The position numbers and the translations under genes were made by a program. From positions 15,351 to 79,350 of the forward strand of contig CAJWHW010000004.1 in assembly GCA_913040915.1 (NCBI GenBank): a stretch of DNA of 64,000 nucleotides. Reading direction: 5' to 3'. This document shows positions 51,267 to 58,526 of this stretch, one piece after another; within the stretch, counting starts at the first letter, position 1, and the number at the start of each line of letters is the position of its first letter. Below the pieces are notes generated by a model. The model did no database searches and had not been told where the DNA came from. It worked only from the letters and a program-made list of their open reading frames with translations. The DNA is from an uncultured Fidelibacterota bacterium (GTDB lineage: Bacteria; Fidelibacterota; Marinisomatia; Marinisomatales; UBA1611).

Positions 51267-52515
51267 GTTCTCATATCTATTAAATTCCCTATTTAATCTT
51301 CAGCGACACGGGCTAAAGCTGGGTTTAGAACATACATTCCAATTATTGGATTCAATCGGAAATCCTCAAAAAAAATTAGATATGATTCATGTCGCGGGGA
51401 CTAATGGAAAAGGATCGACCTGTGCTCAAATTTCAAGTATTCTATCAACTGTAGGATATAAAGTTGGATTGTACTCATCTCCCCATTTGATAAATTTTAA
51501 TGAAAGGATACGGGTAAATGGGTACCCGATTTCAGATAAAGAAATTGCTGTATTTATGCAAAATATTGAACCAGTAATCAATCAGTTACAATCCACATTT
51601 TTTGAAGTAACGACTGCAATGGCATTACACTATTTTAGACAGCAAAGGGTTGATATTGCAATTATTGAAACAGGCTTGGGAGGCCGATTGGATTCTACCA
51701 ATGTTATTGTTCCTTCGATAACAGTCATAACCCATATTTCAATGGATCATATGGATATTTTAGGAGAAGACCTGGAAAACATTGCATCTGAAAAAGCAGG
51801 TATAATTAAAAAAGGGAAACCATTAGTAATAGCAAATCAAAACCCAATTGTAAAAAAAATTCTAATTGAAACGGCTAAAGAAAAGAATGCACCAGTTGTT
51901 GAACTAGGTCAAATTTCTAAGGTAATCCCTAACATCAATGGGACACAATTTACATATGATAATGAAAGATTTTTTACTCCCTTAATAGGTAACCATCAAG
52001 CTTTAAATGGGGCATTAGCGATCGAAACAACATATCAGTATGAAAAAAGAATTTCTTTACATCAATTAAAAAAAGGATTGGAAAAAGCGTTCTGGCCTGG
52101 TCGATTACAGCAGTTAGATGAAAGAATTTATTATGATGTCGCTCACAATGAAGGAGGGATTGAAACTTTATTAACAACTATTAATAATATTTTTCCCGAG
52201 AAACAGATTATAGGACTATTCTGCCTGAAGGGGGATAAAGAATTAAATCATCTGATAAAAAAAATGAAGGGTAGGTTTAAGCGATTATTTGTTACAACAG
52301 ATTGCAATGGACTGCTATTAAAGGCAACTGAATTATCAGAAAAATTAACATCTTCAGGTCTTCCCAATACTCCTCTTGATTCCATATCTGAAGGCATCAT
52401 AACAATTAAAAAAGAACTAACAAAAGGCAGCGTAGGGATTATTTTTGGCAGCCATTACATTGCAAAAGAAATTTTTGATGAATTTGAAATATCATTTGAC
52501 ACCGGAATAATTTGA
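51253..52515 (+). CDS. folC: Folylpolyglutamate synthase/dihydrofolate synthase
   Basis: HVAGTNGKGS, SPHL..FNERI, ETGLGGRLDSTN, WPGR and DVAHN motifs. Confidence 0.95.
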   Translation: MTSPEFSYLLNSLFNLQRHGLKLGLEHTFQLLDSIGNPQKKLDMIHVAGTNGKGSTCAQISSILSTVGYKVGLYSSPHLINFNERIRVNGYPISDKEIAVFMQNIEPVINQLQSTFFEVTTAMALHYFRQQRVDIAIIETGLGGRLDSTNVIVPSITVITHISMDHMDILGEDLENIASEKAGIIKKGKPLVIANQNPIVKKILIETAKEKNAPVVELGQISKVIPNINGTQFTYDNERFFTPLIGNHQALNGALAIETTYQYEKRISLHQLKKGLEKAFWPGRLQQLDERIYYDVAHNEGGIETLLTTINNIFPEKQIIGLFCLKGDKELNHLIKKMKGRFKRLFVTTDCNGLLLKATELSEKLTSSGLPNTPLDSISEGIITIKKELTKGSVGIIFGSHYIAKEIFDEFEISFDTGII

Positions 52516-52523
52516 TGTAATTT
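52496..52523 (+). promoter_or_regulatory. Candidate sigma70 promoter for rho and the downstream cas6-like gene
   Basis: Consensus -35 TTGACA, 16-nt spacer, then TAATTT; overlaps the end of folC. Confidence 0.45.
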
Positions 52524-52598
52524 CTCATGACTCCATTATCCCCCCGGAGACTTATATTTTTACAATTCCAAAGGTTTTTTTAAATAGGTTTTAATTAT

Positions 52599-53849
52599 AT
52601 GGATCTTAATGAATTACAGTCCTTGCATATTCGTGAACTTACAGAATTAGCTCAAAAACTAAATATTGAAGGTGGTGTAGCCGGTCTCAATAAGCAGGAA
52701 TTGACTGTACGTATTCTTGAAGCGCAGGATAAAAAAGAAGAAAAATTATCTGCAAGAGGTGTTTTAGAAGTGATGCAAGACGGTTATGGTTTTTTGCGCT
52801 CCCCTGACTATAATTATTTACCCGGCCCTGATGATATCTATGTAAGCCCATCGCAAATCAAAAGATTTGGATTAAAAACGGGTCATCTCATCACTGGTCA
52901 AATCCGGCCACCTAAATCAAAAGAACGGTTTTATGCCTTGTTAAAAGTTCAAACAGTTAACGAAAAACCAATTGAAAAATTAAAAGACATTATTCTCTTT
53001 GATAATTTTACTCCGCTTTATCCTGAAGATAAATTCAATTTAGAAACAGAAGAAAAAGATCTATCCATGAGAATTATGGATTTGATGGCACCGATTGGTA
53101 AAGGTCAACGTGGACTAATTGTGGCCCAACCCAAAACTGGTAAAACTATATTACTCCAGAAACTTGCAAATGCTATCAGTAAGAAACATCCTGAAACACA
53201 AAGAATTGTTTTATTAATTGATGAGCGTCCAGAAGAAGTGACAGATATGAAGAGAAATGTGGATGCGGAAGTAATTAGCTCTACCTTTGATGAGCCACCT
53301 GAACGCCATGTATCTGTTGCTGATATGGTTTTGCAAAAAGCAAAAAGAATGGTTGAATTTGGTCAAGATGTTGTAATACTTTTAGATAGTATAACCCGTT
53401 TAGCGCGAGCTCATAATGCTGTGATACCTCATAGTGGTAAGATATTATCAGGAGGTGTAGATTTTAATGCGTTAAAAAAACCAAAACAATTTTTTGGAGC
53501 AGCAAGGAATACGGAAGAAGGTGGTAGTCTAACAATTATTTCCACAGCCCTAATTGATACTGGTAGTCGAGCAGATGAAGTTATTTTTGAAGAATTCAAG
53601 GGCACAGGAAATATGGAATTAGTTTTAGATCGTAGATTAAGCGATCGTAGAGTATATCCCGCATTTGATATTATTCGATCAGGGACCAGGAAAGAAGAAC
53701 TACTAATGGGCCGAAAAGAACTAGGTAGAATGTGGATTCTTCGGAAATTACTAAATGACATGAAAGTAGAAGAAGCCATGGAATTCATGCTTGACCGTTT
53801 GAAAAGAACTAAATCTAATGCTGAGTTTTTAGATACAATGAGCCAATAA
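52599..53849 (+). CDS. rho: Transcription termination factor Rho
   Basis: [45 protein letters not shown] and [10 protein letters not shown] motifs. Confidence 0.98.
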
Positions 53850-53873
53850 ATACCAATATAACTTTTATAAAGG

Positions 53874-54920
53874 ATGAATGAAGAGTTTCCAGATATAAGA
53901 TCAGTTGTAATTAGAGTCATCACAAATAAGCCCGTACGAAAAACACCCTACCAAGTAAAGGGCGTTTTTATGCGTCAATACCCTGATGAACCGATCATAC
54001 CCATGTTAGATGGTTCATATCGGGATCGCTTTTTGTATCCAAGAGTCCAAGTTAAAATCTTAAATGAACAAATCTATATAATAGGTGTTCATGAAGGTGT
54101 TGACTCTGTACTATCTTTGGCAGAAAAATTTAAAGAATTTGATTTTGGCAATATCACTTTTGAGGTAGAGGACACCGATATTGAAGATGTAAACCAGCAG
54201 TTTATACCATCGAGTAGATTAGTCCGCTATCGGTTTATTACACCCTGGGTTGCATTAAACCACATGACTGGTGGCCGCTATCGATTTTTAACAAACCAAG
54301 AAAAACCTTCTTTTCTTAATCGACTTTTAGGCCAAAATATTATATTCTTAGCTAATGAGGTAGGTGTGAAACTCGAAGATGATATTTTCACCAAAGTTAA
54401 AGTATCAAGTTTATTTCCTCGCCCAGTAGATGAAAATAAATGGGGTGCATTTATGGGTGAATTTAAAACAAATTTTGTTTTGCCAAATTATATTGGTGTT
54501 GGAAACGGAATAACACGTGGTTTTGGCACTATTTACGGGATGTTCAACCCTGATTCTTTTTCATTTGATGAAGAAGAATTGCAACAAGAGGTATCCAAAA
54601 AATCTAATTTACAGACAACTGAAAATTTTGATGATTTAGAAAGTGTGTCTGCGACTGATGTTCCCAAACCAAGCCGTAGGCGTCGAAAGAAAAATAAGAA
54701 TCAATCATTTCGATCCGGAAGTACAAAAAATAAACGATCAAATAAATCAAGACATCATCATAAAAAACACTATAAGAGAAATGAAACACAAAAACATCAT
54801 CTTCCTCGTACAGGTAGAGTCTTCTCCGAAGAATTTGATATTGAAGATGAAAGTAGTGAAAACCGAGAAGATGAAAAATTCAATACTTCAAAACACCACA
54901 AACGACAACATAAATTTTGA
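53874..54920 (+). CDS. cas6: Stand-alone Cas6b-like RAMP protein with a long acidic/basic low-complexity C-terminal tail
   Basis: YPRVQVK, YRFITPWVALN, FMGEFKTNFVLPNY and the Gly-rich loop IGVGNGITRGFG (GhGxxxxxGhG) in the first ~220 aa. Confidence 0.82.
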   Translation: MNEEFPDIRSVVIRVITNKPVRKTPYQVKGVFMRQYPDEPIIPMLDGSYRDRFLYPRVQVKILNEQIYIIGVHEGVDSVLSLAEKFKEFDFGNITFEVEDTDIEDVNQQFIPSSRLVRYRFITPWVALNHMTGGRYRFLTNQEKPSFLNRLLGQNIIFLANEVGVKLEDDIFTKVKVSSLFPRPVDENKWGAFMGEFKTNFVLPNYIGVGNGITRGFGTIYGMFNPDSFSFDEEELQQEVSKKSNLQTTENFDDLESVSATDVPKPSRRRRKKNKNQSFRSGSTKNKRSNKSRHHHKKHYKRNETQKHHLPRTGRVFSEEFDIEDESSENREDEKFNTSKHHKRQHKF

Positions 54921-56119
54921 GTTATCAACTCGCGGACCGTGTTCATAAGGTCCTCCCATCCTTTACATTACAAATGGCGACACGAGCCGCAGAGATGCGA
55001 TCCGATGGGATTGATGTAATAAATTTTTCGGTTGGTGAACCAGACTTTAATACTCCTTCCCATATCATAGATGCTGGAAAAAAAGCCATGGATAATGGTT
55101 TTACCAAATATACTGCCGGTCCTGGTATGATAGAATTCCGTAAAGCTATTTGCAAAAAACTTAAGCGTGAAAATGGTATTCAATATGAGCCTGCTGATAT
55201 TCTTGTGTCAAATGGAGAAAAACAAAGTCTATATAATGTTTGCCAGGCTTTATTTGGAGAAGGAGATGAAGTCGTGGTCTTTCGTCCTTATTGGGTGTCT
55301 TTCCCAGAATTTGTACGTCTGGCAGATGCTGAACCAGTTTTGGTTAATACGATAGCTGAAAATAATTTTGAACCAGACTTTGATCATTTATCAAAAAAGA
55401 TTTCTTCTAGTATAAAAGGGGTTATTTTAAACTCACCTTCAAACCCCACTGGCGGAATTTGGAGTAAAGATGCTATCCTTCAAGTTTTAAGATTAGCTAA
55501 AGAACAGAATTGGGTGGTAATCTCTGATGAATGCTATGAAAGGTTGGTGTATGATGGTGAATTTATCAGTACAGAAAAGTTGAATCGGGATTATAATATT
55601 GGTGCTGCAGTTGTTACCTGTTTAAGTCTCTCAAAAACGTATGCGATGACGGGTTGGCGTATTGGATACGCTGCGGGGCCAACAGATATTATTAAAGCTA
55701 TGTCAAAAATTCAGGGTCAAGCTACGTCCTGCGCAAATTCAATTGGGCAAATGGCAGGGATTGAAGCATTAACCGGGGACCAATCCTGTGTACAAGAATT
55801 CAAAACAGCGTTTAAAAAACGACGTGATTTAATTGTTGAATTATTAAATAACTTACCTGGTATATCTTGTTTAGTCCCGGGTGGCGCTTTTTATGCTTTC
55901 CCAAATTTTTCATCTTATCTTAACCGTGATATTAGTGGTAATAAATTCAAGGATACTTTTGATATTTCTGAGTATATTTTAGATCGTGCAAATGTGGTTA
56001 CTGTTCCCGGTGATGGTTTTGGTGCCCCGGGGCATATTCGATTTTCATATGCAACCAGCACAAAAATTATTAATGAAGGGGTGTCTCGTGTAAAAAATGC
56101 CCTTATAGAGATTACCTAA
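54917..56119 (+). CDS. PLP-dependent class I/II aminotransferase (aspartate aminotransferase-like)
   Basis: GEPDF, NSPSNPTG, SDECY, SLSKTYAMTGWRIGY and GAFY motifs; TTG start overlaps the cas6-like stop. Confidence 0.93.
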   Translation: MSYQLADRVHKVLPSFTLQMATRAAEMRSDGIDVINFSVGEPDFNTPSHIIDAGKKAMDNGFTKYTAGPGMIEFRKAICKKLKRENGIQYEPADILVSNGEKQSLYNVCQALFGEGDEVVVFRPYWVSFPEFVRLADAEPVLVNTIAENNFEPDFDHLSKKISSSIKGVILNSPSNPTGGIWSKDAILQVLRLAKEQNWVVISDECYERLVYDGEFISTEKLNRDYNIGAAVVTCLSLSKTYAMTGWRIGYAAGPTDIIKAMSKIQGQATSCANSIGQMAGIEALTGDQSCVQEFKTAFKKRRDLIVELLNNLPGISCLVPGGAFYAFPNFSSYLNRDISGNKFKDTFDISEYILDRANVVTVPGDGFGAPGHIRFSYATSTKIINEGVSRVKNALIEIT

Positions 56120-56133
56120 CATAGGAGTGAATC

Positions 56134-56382
56134 ATGAAAAAAGGCGTACACCCCGAAAATTATCGACTGGTAGTTTTCAAAGATACATCTTGTGATTATG
56201 CATTTTTGACCCGATCCACTGTAGAAACAAAGGAAACAATAACATGGGATGATGGGAATGAATATCCTTTGTGCAAAATTGAGATTTCTAACAAATCTCA
56301 TCCGTTTTTTACTGGAAAACAAAATCTGGTAGATACTGCAGGACGTATCGAAAAATTCAATCAAAAATACGGTCGTAAGTAG
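56134..56382 (+). CDS. rpmE: 50S ribosomal protein L31, type B
   Basis: [10 protein letters not shown] and [21 protein letters not shown] motifs; no CxxC pairs; SD AGGAG. Confidence 0.96.
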
Positions 56383-56579: not shown

Positions 56580-57656
56580 TTGAGAGGAAAACTCATAACC
56601 ATTATAGAAAAACACTCTCATCTTGCAGAACAGATGGCTGATCCTGAAATATTCGGTGATCAAGAAAAATTGACTATTATTGCAAAGGAGCATAGCTCTT
56701 TAGGAGAAATTGTTTCCGTTGGTCAAGATTATATTTCAACTCTGGATCAAATTTCTGATGATAGGGAAATACTGAATGGTGATGATAAAGATTTAATAGC
56801 AATTGCTGAGGAAGAATTACCCGAATTAGAATCCCGCTTATCTGAATTAGAAGAAGAATTAAAAGTTCTTCTTTTACCAAAGAATCCGCATGATGATAAA
56901 AATCTTATATTAGAAATACGGGCCGGAACTGGTGGTGACGAAGCTGCTTTATTTGCCGCAGATCTTTACCGCGTTTATACTAGATACGCCGAACGGAATA
57001 ACTGGAGTTTTAAAGTAATGGAATCATCTGATACTGGCATTGGGGGTATGAAAGAAGTTATTGTTTCTATGCAAGGAAAGGGTGCCTTTGGAATGTTAAA
57101 ATATGAAAGTGGTGTCCACCGTGTGCAACGTGTTCCCAAGACAGAAACAAGCGGAAGAGTCCACACTTCTGCTGCCACGGTGGCTATTTTACCTGAAGCT
57201 GAAGATGTGGATGTTGAAGTGAATGAAAGTGACCTTAAAATAGATACATATCGTGCTAGCGGTGCGGGTGGTCAACATGTAAATAAAACAGAATCAGCCA
57301 TTCGTATTACACATATTCCGACAGGCTTAGTTGTCACCTGCCAAGATGAGTCTTCCCAGCATAAAAATAGAGCCGCTGCTATGAAAGTGTTAAAGTCTAG
57401 ATTACTGGCTGCAGAGCAGGAGAAAGTGGCAGCAGAACGTGCAGCAGAACGGAAAAGTTTAGTATCAACAGGAGATCGCTCTGCAAAAATTCGCACATAT
57501 AATTTCCCGCAAGGCAGAGTAACAGATCACAGGATTAACTTTACTACATATAGGTTGAATGAAATTCTGGATGGTGATATAACAGAAATTATTGAACAAT
57601 TGAAAATGACTGAACAGCAAGAATTACTTGCCGCTGAAACAGAATCATTATCCTAA
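56580..57656 (+). CDS. prfA: Peptide chain release factor 1
   Basis: [23 protein letters not shown] (PxT), GGQ and RTYNFPQ motifs; TTG start. Confidence 0.97.
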
Positions 57657-57671
57657 AAAATCACCCTGTTA

Positions 57672-58526
57672 ATGCCAAAAATCTGGCGTATCATAGACCT
57701 TATACATTGGGCAGAATCTTACTTCCAAGAAAAAGGATTCAGAAATCCGCGAGCCGAAATCGAATGGCTCCTTCGATCTGTTTTAGACTGCAGCCGAATG
57801 GATGTTTATCTTCGCTTTGAAGAACCACTTTCTCAAAGCCAATTAGAGACTCTTCGGACATATGTAAAACGAAGGTTAAATAAAGAGCCTCTTCAGTATA
57901 TTACAGGATCCTGTGATTTTTATGGTAGAAATTATTTTGTAAATGAATATGTGTTAATTCCGAGACCAGAAACAGAGCGACTCGTTGATTGCACATTAGA
58001 AAAAGTAAAAGAAATTAATTCTCCAGATATATTAGATGTTGGCACTGGTTCCGGCTGTATTGCAATTACACTAGGGTTAGAATTGAAAAGAGCATCTATA
58101 ATAGGGCTAGATATTTCTGATTCTGCCCTGAGAGTTGCTAATCAGAATAAAAAAAAGAATTCTATACATAATGTTTCATTCCATCAGATCGATTTCCTGT
58201 GCTGTTTACCAGAAGGTGAGTTTGATTTAGTAGTTTCTAATCCACCCTATGTTTCAAAACTAGAGATGAGTGGACTTATGAAAGATGTACGAGAGTTTGA
58301 ACCAACTTTAGCATTAACTGATAACAAAGATGGACTCACTTTTTACAGACGTTTTGCTGAAATCGGTAATACATTGGTTAAAAAGGGTGGTAGTATAATT
58401 TTAGAAGTAGGAGCAGGGAAGCATCCTCAAAAAGCAAAATCCATTTTTGAACATGAAGGCTATGCTGATATTCAACTATTAAAAGATTTTAATGGCGATG
58501 ACCGTATATTGATAATAGGTATATAA
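57672..58526 (+). CDS. prmC: Release factor glutamine methyltransferase
   Basis: EPLQYITG, LIPRPETE, DVGTGSGCIA and SNPPY motifs; follows prfA. Confidence 0.95.
   Translation: MPKIWRIIDLIHWAESYFQEKGFRNPRAEIEWLLRSVLDCSRMDVYLRFEEPLSQSQLETLRTYVKRRLNKEPLQYITGSCDFYGRNYFVNEYVLIPRPETERLVDCTLEKVKEINSPDILDVGTGSGCIAITLGLELKRASIIGLDISDSALRVANQNKKKNSIHNVSFHQIDFLCCLPEGEFDLVVSNPPYVSKLEMSGLMKDVREFEPTLALTDNKDGLTFYRRFAEIGNTLVKKGGSIILEVGAGKHPQKAKSIFEHEGYADIQLLKDFNGDDRILIIGI

Follow-up and report, generated by a model that had tools for sequence, protein, structure and literature searches.

Why does a gene resembling cas6b, whose products are defined by a cut in CRISPR repeat RNA that yields an 8-nt 5' handle, lie directly after rho among the housekeeping genes of an uncultured Fidelibacterota bacterium? 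The window analyzed was a 64,000-nt stretch of this genome, in which the Cas6b-like ORF runs from 53874 to 54920 on the + strand with an ATG start and encodes 348 aa, comprising a Cas6b core and a disordered tail. It is preceded by the transcription termination factor gene rho (52599..53849, +; 416 aa; Pfam Rho_N, Rho_RNA_bind, and ATP-synt_ab), with a 24-nt spacer (53850..53873, +) when measured from the end of the rho ORF at 53849. Its TGA (54918-54920) overlaps a class I/II aminotransferase gene (54917..56119, +; Pfam) with a TTG start at 54917. Downstream are rpmE (56134-56382, +; Pfam Ribosomal_L31), prfA (56580-57656, +; Pfam PCRF and RF-1), and prmC (57672-58526, +; Pfam PrmC_N and MTS), and Pfam also identified UbiA among the neighbors. 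A sequence-only reading made earlier had described the 24-nt spacing, the stop-start overlap, and the rho-rpmE-prfA-prmC surroundings, and the ORF coordinates and the Pfam matches for Rho, L31, RF-1, and PrmC agree with it on each. It had also proposed that the gene is a domesticated, CRISPR-independent Cas6, co-expressed with Rho, which may bind or process cellular RNA hairpins.

Family matches of the ORF to Cas6b are far beyond chance. The N-terminal RRM/RAMP half (aa 8-105; 53895..54188, +) matched Pfam Cas6b_N (37.2 bits, where the cut-off is 25; 3.3e-9), and the C-terminal half (aa 114-220; 54213..54533, +) matched Cas6b_C (84.2 bits, where the cut-off is 39.4; 1e-23). PADLOC profiles gave 9.1e-40 for Cas6b and 4.6e-40 for Cas6, no family was matched in an NCBIfam search, and phmmer matched the Cas6b structure PDB 4z7k with an E of 6.6e-25. 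The AF2 model has block-mean pLDDT values of 87-97 over core residues 10-222 and of 92-97 over residues 11-110 in the N-terminal half. Foldseek matched this model to 4z7k_A (E 1.1e-17, target-normalized TM 0.80), and nearly all matches beyond it were Cas6 proteins too. All four motifs in the first ~220 aa from which the Cas6b assignment had first been made were found in the translation, namely LYPRVQVK (aa 54-61), YRFITPWVALN (aa 119-129, C-terminal half), FMGEFKTNFVLPNY (aa 193-206), and the Gly-rich loop IGVGNGITRGFG (aa 207-218, nt 54492-54527, C-terminal half). Y119, W125, G210, G216, and G218 are invariant in an alignment of 35 sequences. With two tandem RRM/RAMP folds and the C-terminal Gly-rich loop present, and with profile and structure matches agreeing, this is a two-RRM protein of the Cas6b fold. 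The best match in both sequence and fold was MmCas6b (subtype I-B; PDB 4Z7K/4Z7L; PF17955 and PF17262), with which it shares Y-x-F-x-T-P-W-x-A-L-N, the Gly-rich loop, and about equal core length. Unlike MmCas6b, it has no H-x-H, no array or cas operon, a fixed position after rho, a clade of its own, and, in one order, an extra disordered tail of 60-150 aa.

CRISPR arrays are often missing from assemblies, and the source assembly is a MAG of 71 contigs that is 85% complete. No array was found in these 71 contigs by a k-mer finder, which as a positive control recovered arrays in 2/4 canonical Fidelibacterota CRISPR loci. Nor was there a match to Cas1, Cas5, Cas7/DevR, or RAMP anywhere in this 85%-complete assembly; in the window, a lack of CRISPR repeats and other cas genes had been noticed first. 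Cas6b_C was matched only once, and a scan of the source genome for the 37-nt repeats of canonical Fidelibacterota CRISPR loci, with up to 7 mismatches allowed, found none. In this genome, the gene is therefore not encoded alongside cas genes or a CRISPR array. Among 301 sampled Fidelibacterota genomes, 163 have a homologue and 59 have a Cas1 match, and 131 of the 163 homologue-bearing genomes are without a Cas1 match, the Cas1 counts resting on MAGs of varied completeness. In the order of the source genome, with family f3 excluded, the homologue is in all 115 genomes and Cas1 in 14. Two single-contig genomes (G186 and G134) carry the gene and gave no match in searches for Cas1, Cas5, Cas7, and RAMP. 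Those Fidelibacterota genomes that do have CRISPR-Cas hold a separate canonical Cas6b, with four copies sharing a contig with Cas1 at a distance of 7-9 kb and two further copies adjoining an ORF6N gene, one of the two being 2 kb from Cas12a. The Cas6b-like gene is not a working CRISPR part. An ordinary Cas6b maturing crRNAs in trans, for type III loci or for arrays lost from the MAG, would suit the 85% completeness, the public annotation of a clade member as 'CRISPR-associated endonuclease Cas6', and the reliance of many type III systems on Cas6 supplied in trans (PMC12669027, in the text available). It is close to refuted by the 131 of 163 genomes, by the two single-contig genomes, by the missing 37-nt repeats, by the separate H-x-H Cas6b that CRISPR-bearing relatives own beside their cas genes, and by the loss of the catalytic dyad described next.

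The degenerate catalytic site I42-P43-M44-L45-D46-G47 (53997..54014, +) was located by phmmer alignment to 4z7k, in which its counterpart is V37-H38-N39-H40-R41-D42-N43 of MmCas6b; H38 corresponds to P43, and H40 falls opposite a gap of one residue. H38 and H40 are catalytic and jointly essential in MmCas6b, the double mutant being nearly dead (PMC3479195, in the text available). MmCas6b Y47, the mutation of which lowers activity according to the source text available, corresponds to F53 in a column that is variable across the family. In the family alignment, H-x-H is present in 0/49 rho-linked proteins versus 7/8 canonical CRISPR-linked paralogues from the same phylum. It is present in 104/134 global representatives and in 0/21 of those that fall within the rho-linked clade. 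The sequence-only reading had missed this loss. The Gly-rich loop and the Y-x-F-x-T-P-W Cas6b core have been retained while the H-x-H dyad has been lost, and this loss moves the odds from processing toward binding. By analogy, it need not mean that cleavage is lost, as SsoCas6 is without the catalytic histidine yet still cuts at ~1 per minute (PMC3652601, in the text available). The protein might thus still be an endoribonuclease in which a histidine-free active site was rebuilt, as in crenarchaeal Cas6, and act as a housekeeping cutter of cellular RNA, be it of rRNA or tRNA precursors, of operon mRNA, or of a small RNA. The SsoCas6 precedent and the near invariance, close to the former active site, of G47, Y55, P56, and R57 (family alignments) and of R50 in A1 argue for it. 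The loss of both histidines and the F53 substitution, set beside the MmCas6b mutants, argue against it, and we regard it as unlikely.

Cas6 proteins from crenarchaea (SsoCas6 and others; PDB 3ZFV and 4ILL) resemble it in missing the canonical catalytic histidine (PMC3652601, same text). The two structures were distant Foldseek matches (ranks 19 and 31; query-normalized TM 0.28-0.34). Unlike the Cas6b-like protein, these belong to CRISPR loci and actively cut crRNA, and their active-site lysine has no known counterpart in it.

Pyrococcus furiosus is rich in CRISPR. Beside its catalytic Cas6 (3I4H), it has a non-catalytic paralogue, PfuCas6nc (PDB 3UFC), which like the Cas6b-like protein has a Cas6 fold without the catalytic residues (PMC3652601, in the text available). 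The match to 3ufc was a distant one (Foldseek rank 10; E 1.9e-6; 14% identity). Unlike PfuCas6nc, the present family is part of the Cas6b branch rather than that of Pfu Cas6, is passed on together with rho, and is found mostly in genomes that lack CRISPR-Cas.

The linkage to rho was found to be general. In 49/49 loci reaching that far, at 25-100% identity, rho was the immediate upstream gene, and the pair is intact where downstream genes differ (L035, L041, and L044-L046). The aminotransferase is the next gene 3' in most loci and lies directly 3' of rho in lineages without the Cas6b-like gene. A tree separated the 49 rho-linked proteins from 8 canonical ones (SH-aLRT 99), with a gene-tree topology nested by taxonomy, order within class within phylum. 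In a 191-row tree made of the 49 rho-linked, the 8 canonical, and 134 global representative proteins, the 49 rho-linked rows and 21 representatives formed one clade of 70 with a local support of 100, and H-x-H was in 0/70 members of this clade versus 111/121 outside. These trees show a single origin and vertical descent of the rho-linked proteins. The gene left CRISPR-Cas early in the evolution of Fidelibacterota (Marinimicrobia) and has since been inherited vertically directly after rho. The earlier proposal of a domesticated, CRISPR-independent Cas6 is supported by the rho linkage in 49/49 loci, by vertical inheritance, and by the 131/163 homologue-bearing genomes without Cas1; occurrence only in genomes with class 1 arrays and without linkage to rho is not what was found. 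A profile search for relatives beyond the phylum gave 18 proteins only, three of which carry a source name (one of the three naming a taxon, Fidelibacterota), and a search with P0139 alone gave none. The family thus appears confined to Fidelibacterota, in the sense of not being seen elsewhere within what was searched.

Core dN was 0.04-0.26 with saturated dS, and omega was 0.03-0.04 in 3/19 pairs, the sole computable ones. By these estimates, the Cas6b-like core is under strong purifying selection, which also counts for the endoribonuclease. Within the order, core conservation about equals that of neighboring housekeeping genes; at L032, for instance, identities were 80% for rho, 69% for the Cas6b-like core, 65% for prfA, and 73% for dnaE. 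Rho was found in 291/301 sampled genomes, including 28/30 genomes of f3 and 14/14 of f17, groups without the Cas6b-like gene, which f20 and g75 lack too. Because several lineages keep rho without it, the gene would be useful but dispensable, and such lineages are unusual for an essential processing step, which argues against the endoribonuclease.

Upstream of rho, a promoter-like element, TTTGACA ... TGTAATTT, spans the folC stop, and the rho leader beyond it contains a small C-rich hairpin, CTCC...GGAG (both within 52495..52549, +; seen by eye). A sigma-70-like match at 52484-52511 overlaps this stretch. By-eye comparison of 150-nt upstream stretches from 71 loci found both the element, a putative promoter, and the hairpin whether or not a lineage has the Cas6b-like gene, so they are not specific to it. 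No terminator-like site was found on the + strand at the rho/Cas6b-like junction. RNA-library contigs X3 (53792-54045) and X4 (53705-53933), from two studies, run across the rho stop and on into the Cas6b-like gene, although such contigs may contain DNA and a two-gene contig does not prove a single transcript. Near-identical RNA-library contigs inside the gene came from 2 runs of one study distinct from the bridging studies. The RNA-library contigs leave 54607-56200 uncovered and have no bearing on the 3' tail or on read-through into the aminotransferase gene. Co-transcription of rho and the Cas6b-like gene is likely, in line with the co-expression that had been supposed.

A search for an RNA ligand of the protein through Rfam, dispersed genome motifs, and the rho leader elements found none. 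Rfam at the gathering threshold gave 0 matches in the window, and only 33 16-mers had at least 4 occurrences in the genome. GGATTAAATGGATTTGGATA has 42 sites (≤3 mismatches) and was rejected as an RNA element because its reverse complement reads YPNPFNP, which we take to be the type IX secretion sorting-domain motif, and is thus coding sequence. TGTGGGGTTTTTTGTTT has 10 sites (≤1 mismatch), 8 of which fold as a CCCCAC/GTGGGG terminator hairpin, and these sites appear to be ordinary-looking terminators. The same search yielded no candidate substrate for an endoribonuclease, which counts against that alternative.

The tail (aa 231-348; 54564..54917, +) is disordered and charged (pI 9.8; K17 E14 S14 R12 N9 H9), with block-mean pLDDT of 41-44 over residues 281-330. 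It is found in the order of the source genome, where it is 60-150 aa long, and rho-linked proteins examined from other orders and classes are tail-less, at 219-263 aa. Comparison of tailed proteins gave DVPKP (aa 262-266; 54657..54671, +), followed by RRRRKK, in 26/33 tailed locus proteins and 99/116 tailed database homologues; residues 251-270 around it have block-mean pLDDT of 76-78, with a short strand at 256-258. A second motif, SEEFDIE (aa 318-324; 54825..54845, +; from the alignment), is in 23/33 and 91/116 of the same sets. The C-terminal FNTSKHHKRQH (aa 336-346; 54879..54911, +; from the tailed-protein comparison) is in 29/33 and 114/116, and helices are predicted at 332-337 and 339-346 (AF2). 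The three motifs resemble docking peptides for partner proteins and would have been gained with the tail in this order.

One such partner might be Rho itself. The core or a tail motif would then dock on Rho, and the protein, as a termination specificity factor peculiar to this phylum, would recruit Rho to, or keep Rho off, transcripts with the RNA site of the protein. The phylum-wide adjacency, which survives rearrangement of other neighbors, and the likely co-transcription are consistent with this, but the adjacency may instead reflect strong synteny of the region, with gene order simply inherited, rather than shared function. Predicted complexes of Rho and the full-length Cas6b-like protein scored 0.32, 0.42, and 0.48 in separate runs (median 0.42) against 0.00 for the best of 3 controls, which lends it weak support. 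The runs share at least 39% of contacts, with a partner pLDDT of at least 64, and give no interface. In calibration, the mark was reached by 116/157 solved complexes and 2/215 mismatched pairs; with scores of 0.60 or less it was reached by 18/157 solved complexes and also by both passing mismatches. Such a pass is rated as wrong in more cases than not, save where the pairing was already probable. Rho is retained unchanged in lineages without the Cas6b-like gene, with no convergent change in 7 partner-less lineages (1/214 conserved columns altered in at least 3 of them), which speaks against a partnership. No Rho fusion was found among the longer homologues, a blank rated as weak evidence against it; an apparent 672-aa frame in G023 holds an in-frame TGA that ends rho and is therefore no Rho-Cas6b fusion. 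The sole longer match, P0286 (693 aa), joins core residues 8-162 to a middle segment of a RecD2-type helicase, each part being broken off inside a domain; it is one sequence on one 5-kb contig and was read as an assembly chimera. The Rho partner is, on balance, doubtful. NusG, Rof/YaeO, Psu, and Hfq are small proteins that are proposed or known Rho modulators; in comparison, the Cas6b-like gene adjoins rho and its product has no known sequence or fold relationship to them.

We favor, with a probability of about 0.6, an exapted Cas6b-derived protein, vertically inherited and co-expressed with rho, that would bind RNA. Cas6 proteins are known for a tight, chaperone-like grip on RNA, and the Cas6b-like protein would reuse this grip on cellular transcripts. 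It would act mainly as a sequence- or structure-specific binder of these transcripts, with cleavage slow or none. Made from the rho transcript, it would follow Rho in dosage and timing, and both would probably act in the same process, the handling of nascent or untranslated RNA. A dedicated Rho specificity subunit in Fidelibacterota, which would mark or protect RNA hairpins or sequences while the tail peptides dock, is a speculative extension to which we give a low chance. Exapted CRISPR modules, including a Streptomyces I-E derivative with a STAND NTPase, haloarchaeal HRAMP, type IV, and CASTs, likewise reuse Cas proteins outside adaptive immunity, and those described in the available text are multi-gene effector derivatives tied to defense, plasmids, or transposons (Koonin and Makarova 2022; PMC8730458). 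Unlike them, the Cas6b-like gene is a single Cas6 inside a chromosomal housekeeping operon. No rho-linked or housekeeping Cas6 was described in the literature searched, with subscription journals and supplements outside its scope.

Pipelines label clade members 'CRISPR-associated endonuclease Cas6', a systematic mis-annotation that may inflate CRISPR counts in marine metagenomes. The family may also offer an RNA-binding scaffold that is ready-made, sequence-specific, and probably non-cutting. For Fidelibacterota, a phylum with almost no genetics, the protein may be a new participant in Rho-dependent termination. It would be a single Cas6 turned chromosomal housekeeping gene, kept under strong purifying selection in the greater part of a globally abundant ocean phylum, and, if the exaptation reading is true, a natural example of an RNA-binding module from CRISPR at work in core RNA metabolism.

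The Cas6b-like gene (53874..54920, forward strand, 348 aa) starts 24 nt after the end of rho at 53849, and its stop overlaps the TTG start of a class I/II aminotransferase gene, followed by rpmE, prfA, and prmC, as the sequence-only reading had laid it out. All four Cas6b-type motifs named there were found in the translation. Both Pfam halves scored above the cut-off (Cas6b_N at residues 8-105, 37.2 bits versus 25; Cas6b_C at residues 114-220, 84.2 bits versus 39.4), the PADLOC Cas6b model matched at 9.1e-40, and no NCBIfam model matched the 348-aa protein. By sequence, the only significant solved relative was Methanococcus maripaludis Cas6b (4z7k; phmmer, E = 6.6e-25). In an AlphaFold2 model made with 35 family members as input, block-mean pLDDT ranged from 87 to 97 across residues 10-222, and 4z7k was again the top Foldseek match (E = 1.1e-17, TM 0.80 to target), with nearly all lower matches being Cas6 proteins. 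The proposed Cas6b identity was thus borne out by profile and by predicted fold.

To examine synteny, proteins from the window were compared by tblastn with 50 loci, each of a different genome, with 25-100% identity over the core (the Cas6b-matching part). The adjacency to rho was kept in 49 of the 49 loci reaching that far, with rho immediately upstream; one locus ends at a contig edge. The downstream order aminotransferase-rpmE-prfA-prmC-ubiA-dnaE is usual in the 50 loci, not constant: ubiA-dnaE follows the gene in four (L035, L041, L045, and L046), and the rho/Cas6b-like pair alone remains in L044. Lineages without a homologue match were re-examined starting from rho, and two divergent Cas6b-like copies (L063 and L065) were recovered. 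The gene was missing, with rho directly followed by the aminotransferase gene and the remaining synteny intact, in families f3 (5 loci), f17 (4), and f20 (1), in genome G154 of f21 (1), and in g75 of f24 (3); f18 (2 loci) and f28 (5 loci) had different neighbours around rho. Since rho was present in 291 of the 301 sampled genomes, including 28/30 of the gene-lacking f3 and 14/14 of the gene-lacking f17, Rho does not need the Cas6b-like protein. Rho of the genome-reduced f3 (L070-L074, ~1-Mb genomes) measured 428-439 aa over the tblastn match versus 410-416 aa in all other lineages, with open frames of 437-449 aa.

The window's genome is a MAG of 1.86 Mb in 71 contigs, 85% complete, with 35.6% G+C. 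The closest homologues carry the names Candidatus Marinimicrobia or Fidelibacterota, and NCBI taxonomy places the former in phylum Fidelibacterota, FCB group. Cas1, Cas5, Cas7/DevR, and type III RAMP genes were not found in this 85%-complete MAG, which had one Cas6b_C match only, and no repeat-spacer array was detected with a k-mer finder that recovered 37-nt arrays in 2/4 canonical cas loci of the phylum as a positive control. The 37-nt repeats of those loci were absent from the genome at up to 7 mismatches. The earlier reading, made for 64 kb, had seen no CRISPR repeats or other cas genes; the same was found across the MAG. Of the 301 genomes sampled from the phylum, mostly MAGs, so that each absence means "not found," 163 had a homologue and 59 had Cas1, and the gene-bearing genomes included 32 with Cas1 and 131 without a Cas1 match. 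In the window's order excluding f3, the homologue was found in 115/115 genomes and Cas1 in 14; in f21, the counts were 9/10 and 0/10. Two single-contig genomes (G186 and G134) carried the gene and had no Cas1, Cas5, Cas7, or RAMP match. The pattern is consistent from family to family despite the MAG sampling.

Canonical Cas6b paralogues of the phylum occupy other positions. In four cases among Cas1-positive f28 genomes, a Cas6b_C match shared a contig with Cas1 at a distance of 7-9 kb. CRISPR arrays with 37-nt repeats were located at contig ends beside canonical Cas1/Cas6b loci in G010 (L085:14735-15139, 6 copies) and G022 (L086:19-277, 4 copies), with a spacing of 72-76 nt and each repeat starting GTTTCAAT on one strand. 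G243 (L076:6944-12417, contig C18) and G185 (L075:6913-8654, contig C47) have a second Cas6b copy, of the canonical type, adjoining a gene with an ORF6N domain and two ORFs without assignment; these two copies, when scanned, gave far better Pfam scores (Cas6b_N 1e-25 versus 3e-9 in the rho-linked protein). In G243, a Cas12a (Cpf1) gene, truncated at the contig end, lies 2 kb downstream of this group; a Cas6b there is odd, because type V-A effectors process their own crRNA. Among the loci examined, no rho-linked protein was in a cas locus and no canonical Cas6b was next to rho.

According to Richter et al. (2012, PMC3479195), the activity of M. maripaludis Cas6b was lowered by H38A, H40A, or Y47A alone and nearly abolished in the H38A/H40A double mutant. 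In the phmmer alignment, P43 of the Cas6b-like protein stands in the place of H38 and F53 in that of Y47, and H40 falls opposite a gap. When 49 rho-linked proteins of Fidelibacterota were aligned with 8 canonical ones, none of the 49 had a histidine at either position; the canonical proteins had H-N-H in 7/8, with N-N-H in L076. Y119, W125, N155, F193, G195, F197, P204, and the Gly-rich loop residues G210, G216, and G218 were invariant in both family alignments, G47, Y55, P56, and R57 were nearly invariant in both, and R50 was nearly invariant in the 35-sequence alignment only. The family looks to have kept the RNA-binding architecture and lost the known chemistry. Caution on loss of cleavage is needed because SsoCas6 cuts without any catalytic histidine, as given in PMC3652601, where the RNA recognition and chaperone-like side of Cas6 is emphasised.

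The rho-linked and canonical proteins were split in a 57-row tree (SH-aLRT 99), and in the rho-linked group, order was nested in class and class in phylum, as expected for the vertical inheritance that was to be checked. A profile of 33 rho-linked cores retrieved 1,636 proteins at E <= 1e-3 from 1.84 billion representatives, and the 57 rows were combined with 134 of the best 150 (at least 195 aa and alignable across the catalytic site) in a 191-row FastTree. The 49 rho-linked rows and 21 representatives formed one clade of 70 (local support 100), with H-x-H in none of its rows and in 111/121 outside. Among the deep members of this histidine-less clade, one alone (P0139) bears a taxon in its NCBI name, [quoted passage not shown] Synonymous sites were saturated even for the closest orthologue. 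Core dN was 0.04-0.26, with omega of 0.03-0.04 in the 3/19 computable pairs, and core conservation within the order was about that of the housekeeping neighbours; tail dN was 0.29-0.96, with omega of 0.17-0.6 where computable.

The tail (residues 231-348) is charged (pI 9.8; K17, E14, S14, R12, N9, H9) and mostly disordered by prediction. The window's order has it (protein lengths 296-382 aa), and it is absent from the rho-linked forms examined from other orders and classes (219-263 aa). Its length and sequence drift, and three short motifs persist among 33 tailed locus proteins and 116 tailed database homologues: DVPKP plus a basic run (residues 262-273; 26/33 and 99/116), SEEFDIE (318-324; 23/33 and 91/116), and a C-terminal FN....H..QH (336-346; 29/33 and 114/116). 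This pattern would fit docking peptides within a flexible linker.

Co-expression with rho, also proposed from the sequence, gained support short of proof. No terminator-like site was found on the forward strand between rho and the gene. RNA-library contigs were placed at >=90% likeness; three studies of marine metatranscriptomes contributed four runs (X1-X4), in which the region was sparsely represented. Contigs of X1 and X2 lay inside the gene with 0-1 differences, and the rho stop was bridged into it by one contig each of X3 (53792-54045) and X4 (53705-53933); these are supportive and not proof, because DNA can be present in RNA libraries and a contig does not amount to a transcript. A promoter-like TTTGACA ... 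TGTAATTT (52495-52549) spans the folC stop; a small hairpin rich in C comes after it, within the rho leader. The element and hairpin are conserved across much of the phylum, with or without the Cas6b-like gene, and may be a rho autoregulatory leader.

Complex prediction of Rho with the whole protein (35-row alignments each) gave 0.32, 0.42, and 0.48 (median 0.42) versus 0.00 for the best of three controls, with contact agreement of at least 39%, partner pLDDT of at least 64, and no interface given, lending weak support. In calibration, the mark was reached by 116/157 solved complexes and 2/215 mismatches, and at scores of 0.60 or below by 18/157 and both passing mismatches. Rho has 214 columns with conservation of at least 95% across 51 rows that bear the partner, and a single one of these (D216 to E) changed in at least three of seven partner-less lineages, which counts against a tight interface; no fusion of Rho with the Cas6b-like protein was found. 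On this evidence, direct binding to Rho appears rather unlikely.

Searches of the window and genome yielded no RNA ligand. In the genome, GGATTAAATGGATTTGGATA occurs at 42 sites at up to 3 mismatches (e.g., C2:3145, C3:2675, and C12:20474); its reverse complement encodes YPNPFNP, a signature of the C-terminal sorting domains of type IX secretion, and the count points to some 40 proteins of the 1.9-Mb genome being secreted or located at the cell surface. Intrinsic-terminator hairpins TTTTTTGTTT recur at 10 sites (contigs C22, C30, C31, C1, and C18) with an identical T-run and almost the same stem (CCCCAC / GTGGGG), a stem uniformity unusual for independent terminators at 36% G+C.

No description of the rho-linked family was found in the main text of articles outside subscription journals, and the available portions of the 2011 Cas unification paper, the 2025 classification, and the 2022 exaptation review do not mention it. 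The finding of a CRISPR-independent Cas6 within the rho operon is real, and there is good support for a Cas6b derivative that lacks the histidines, is inherited vertically, and is tied to rho. In the handling of RNA related to Rho, the protein would act by binding RNA, and the tail motifs may serve docking. Automated surveys of Fidelibacterota may overcount CRISPR-Cas on account of this family.
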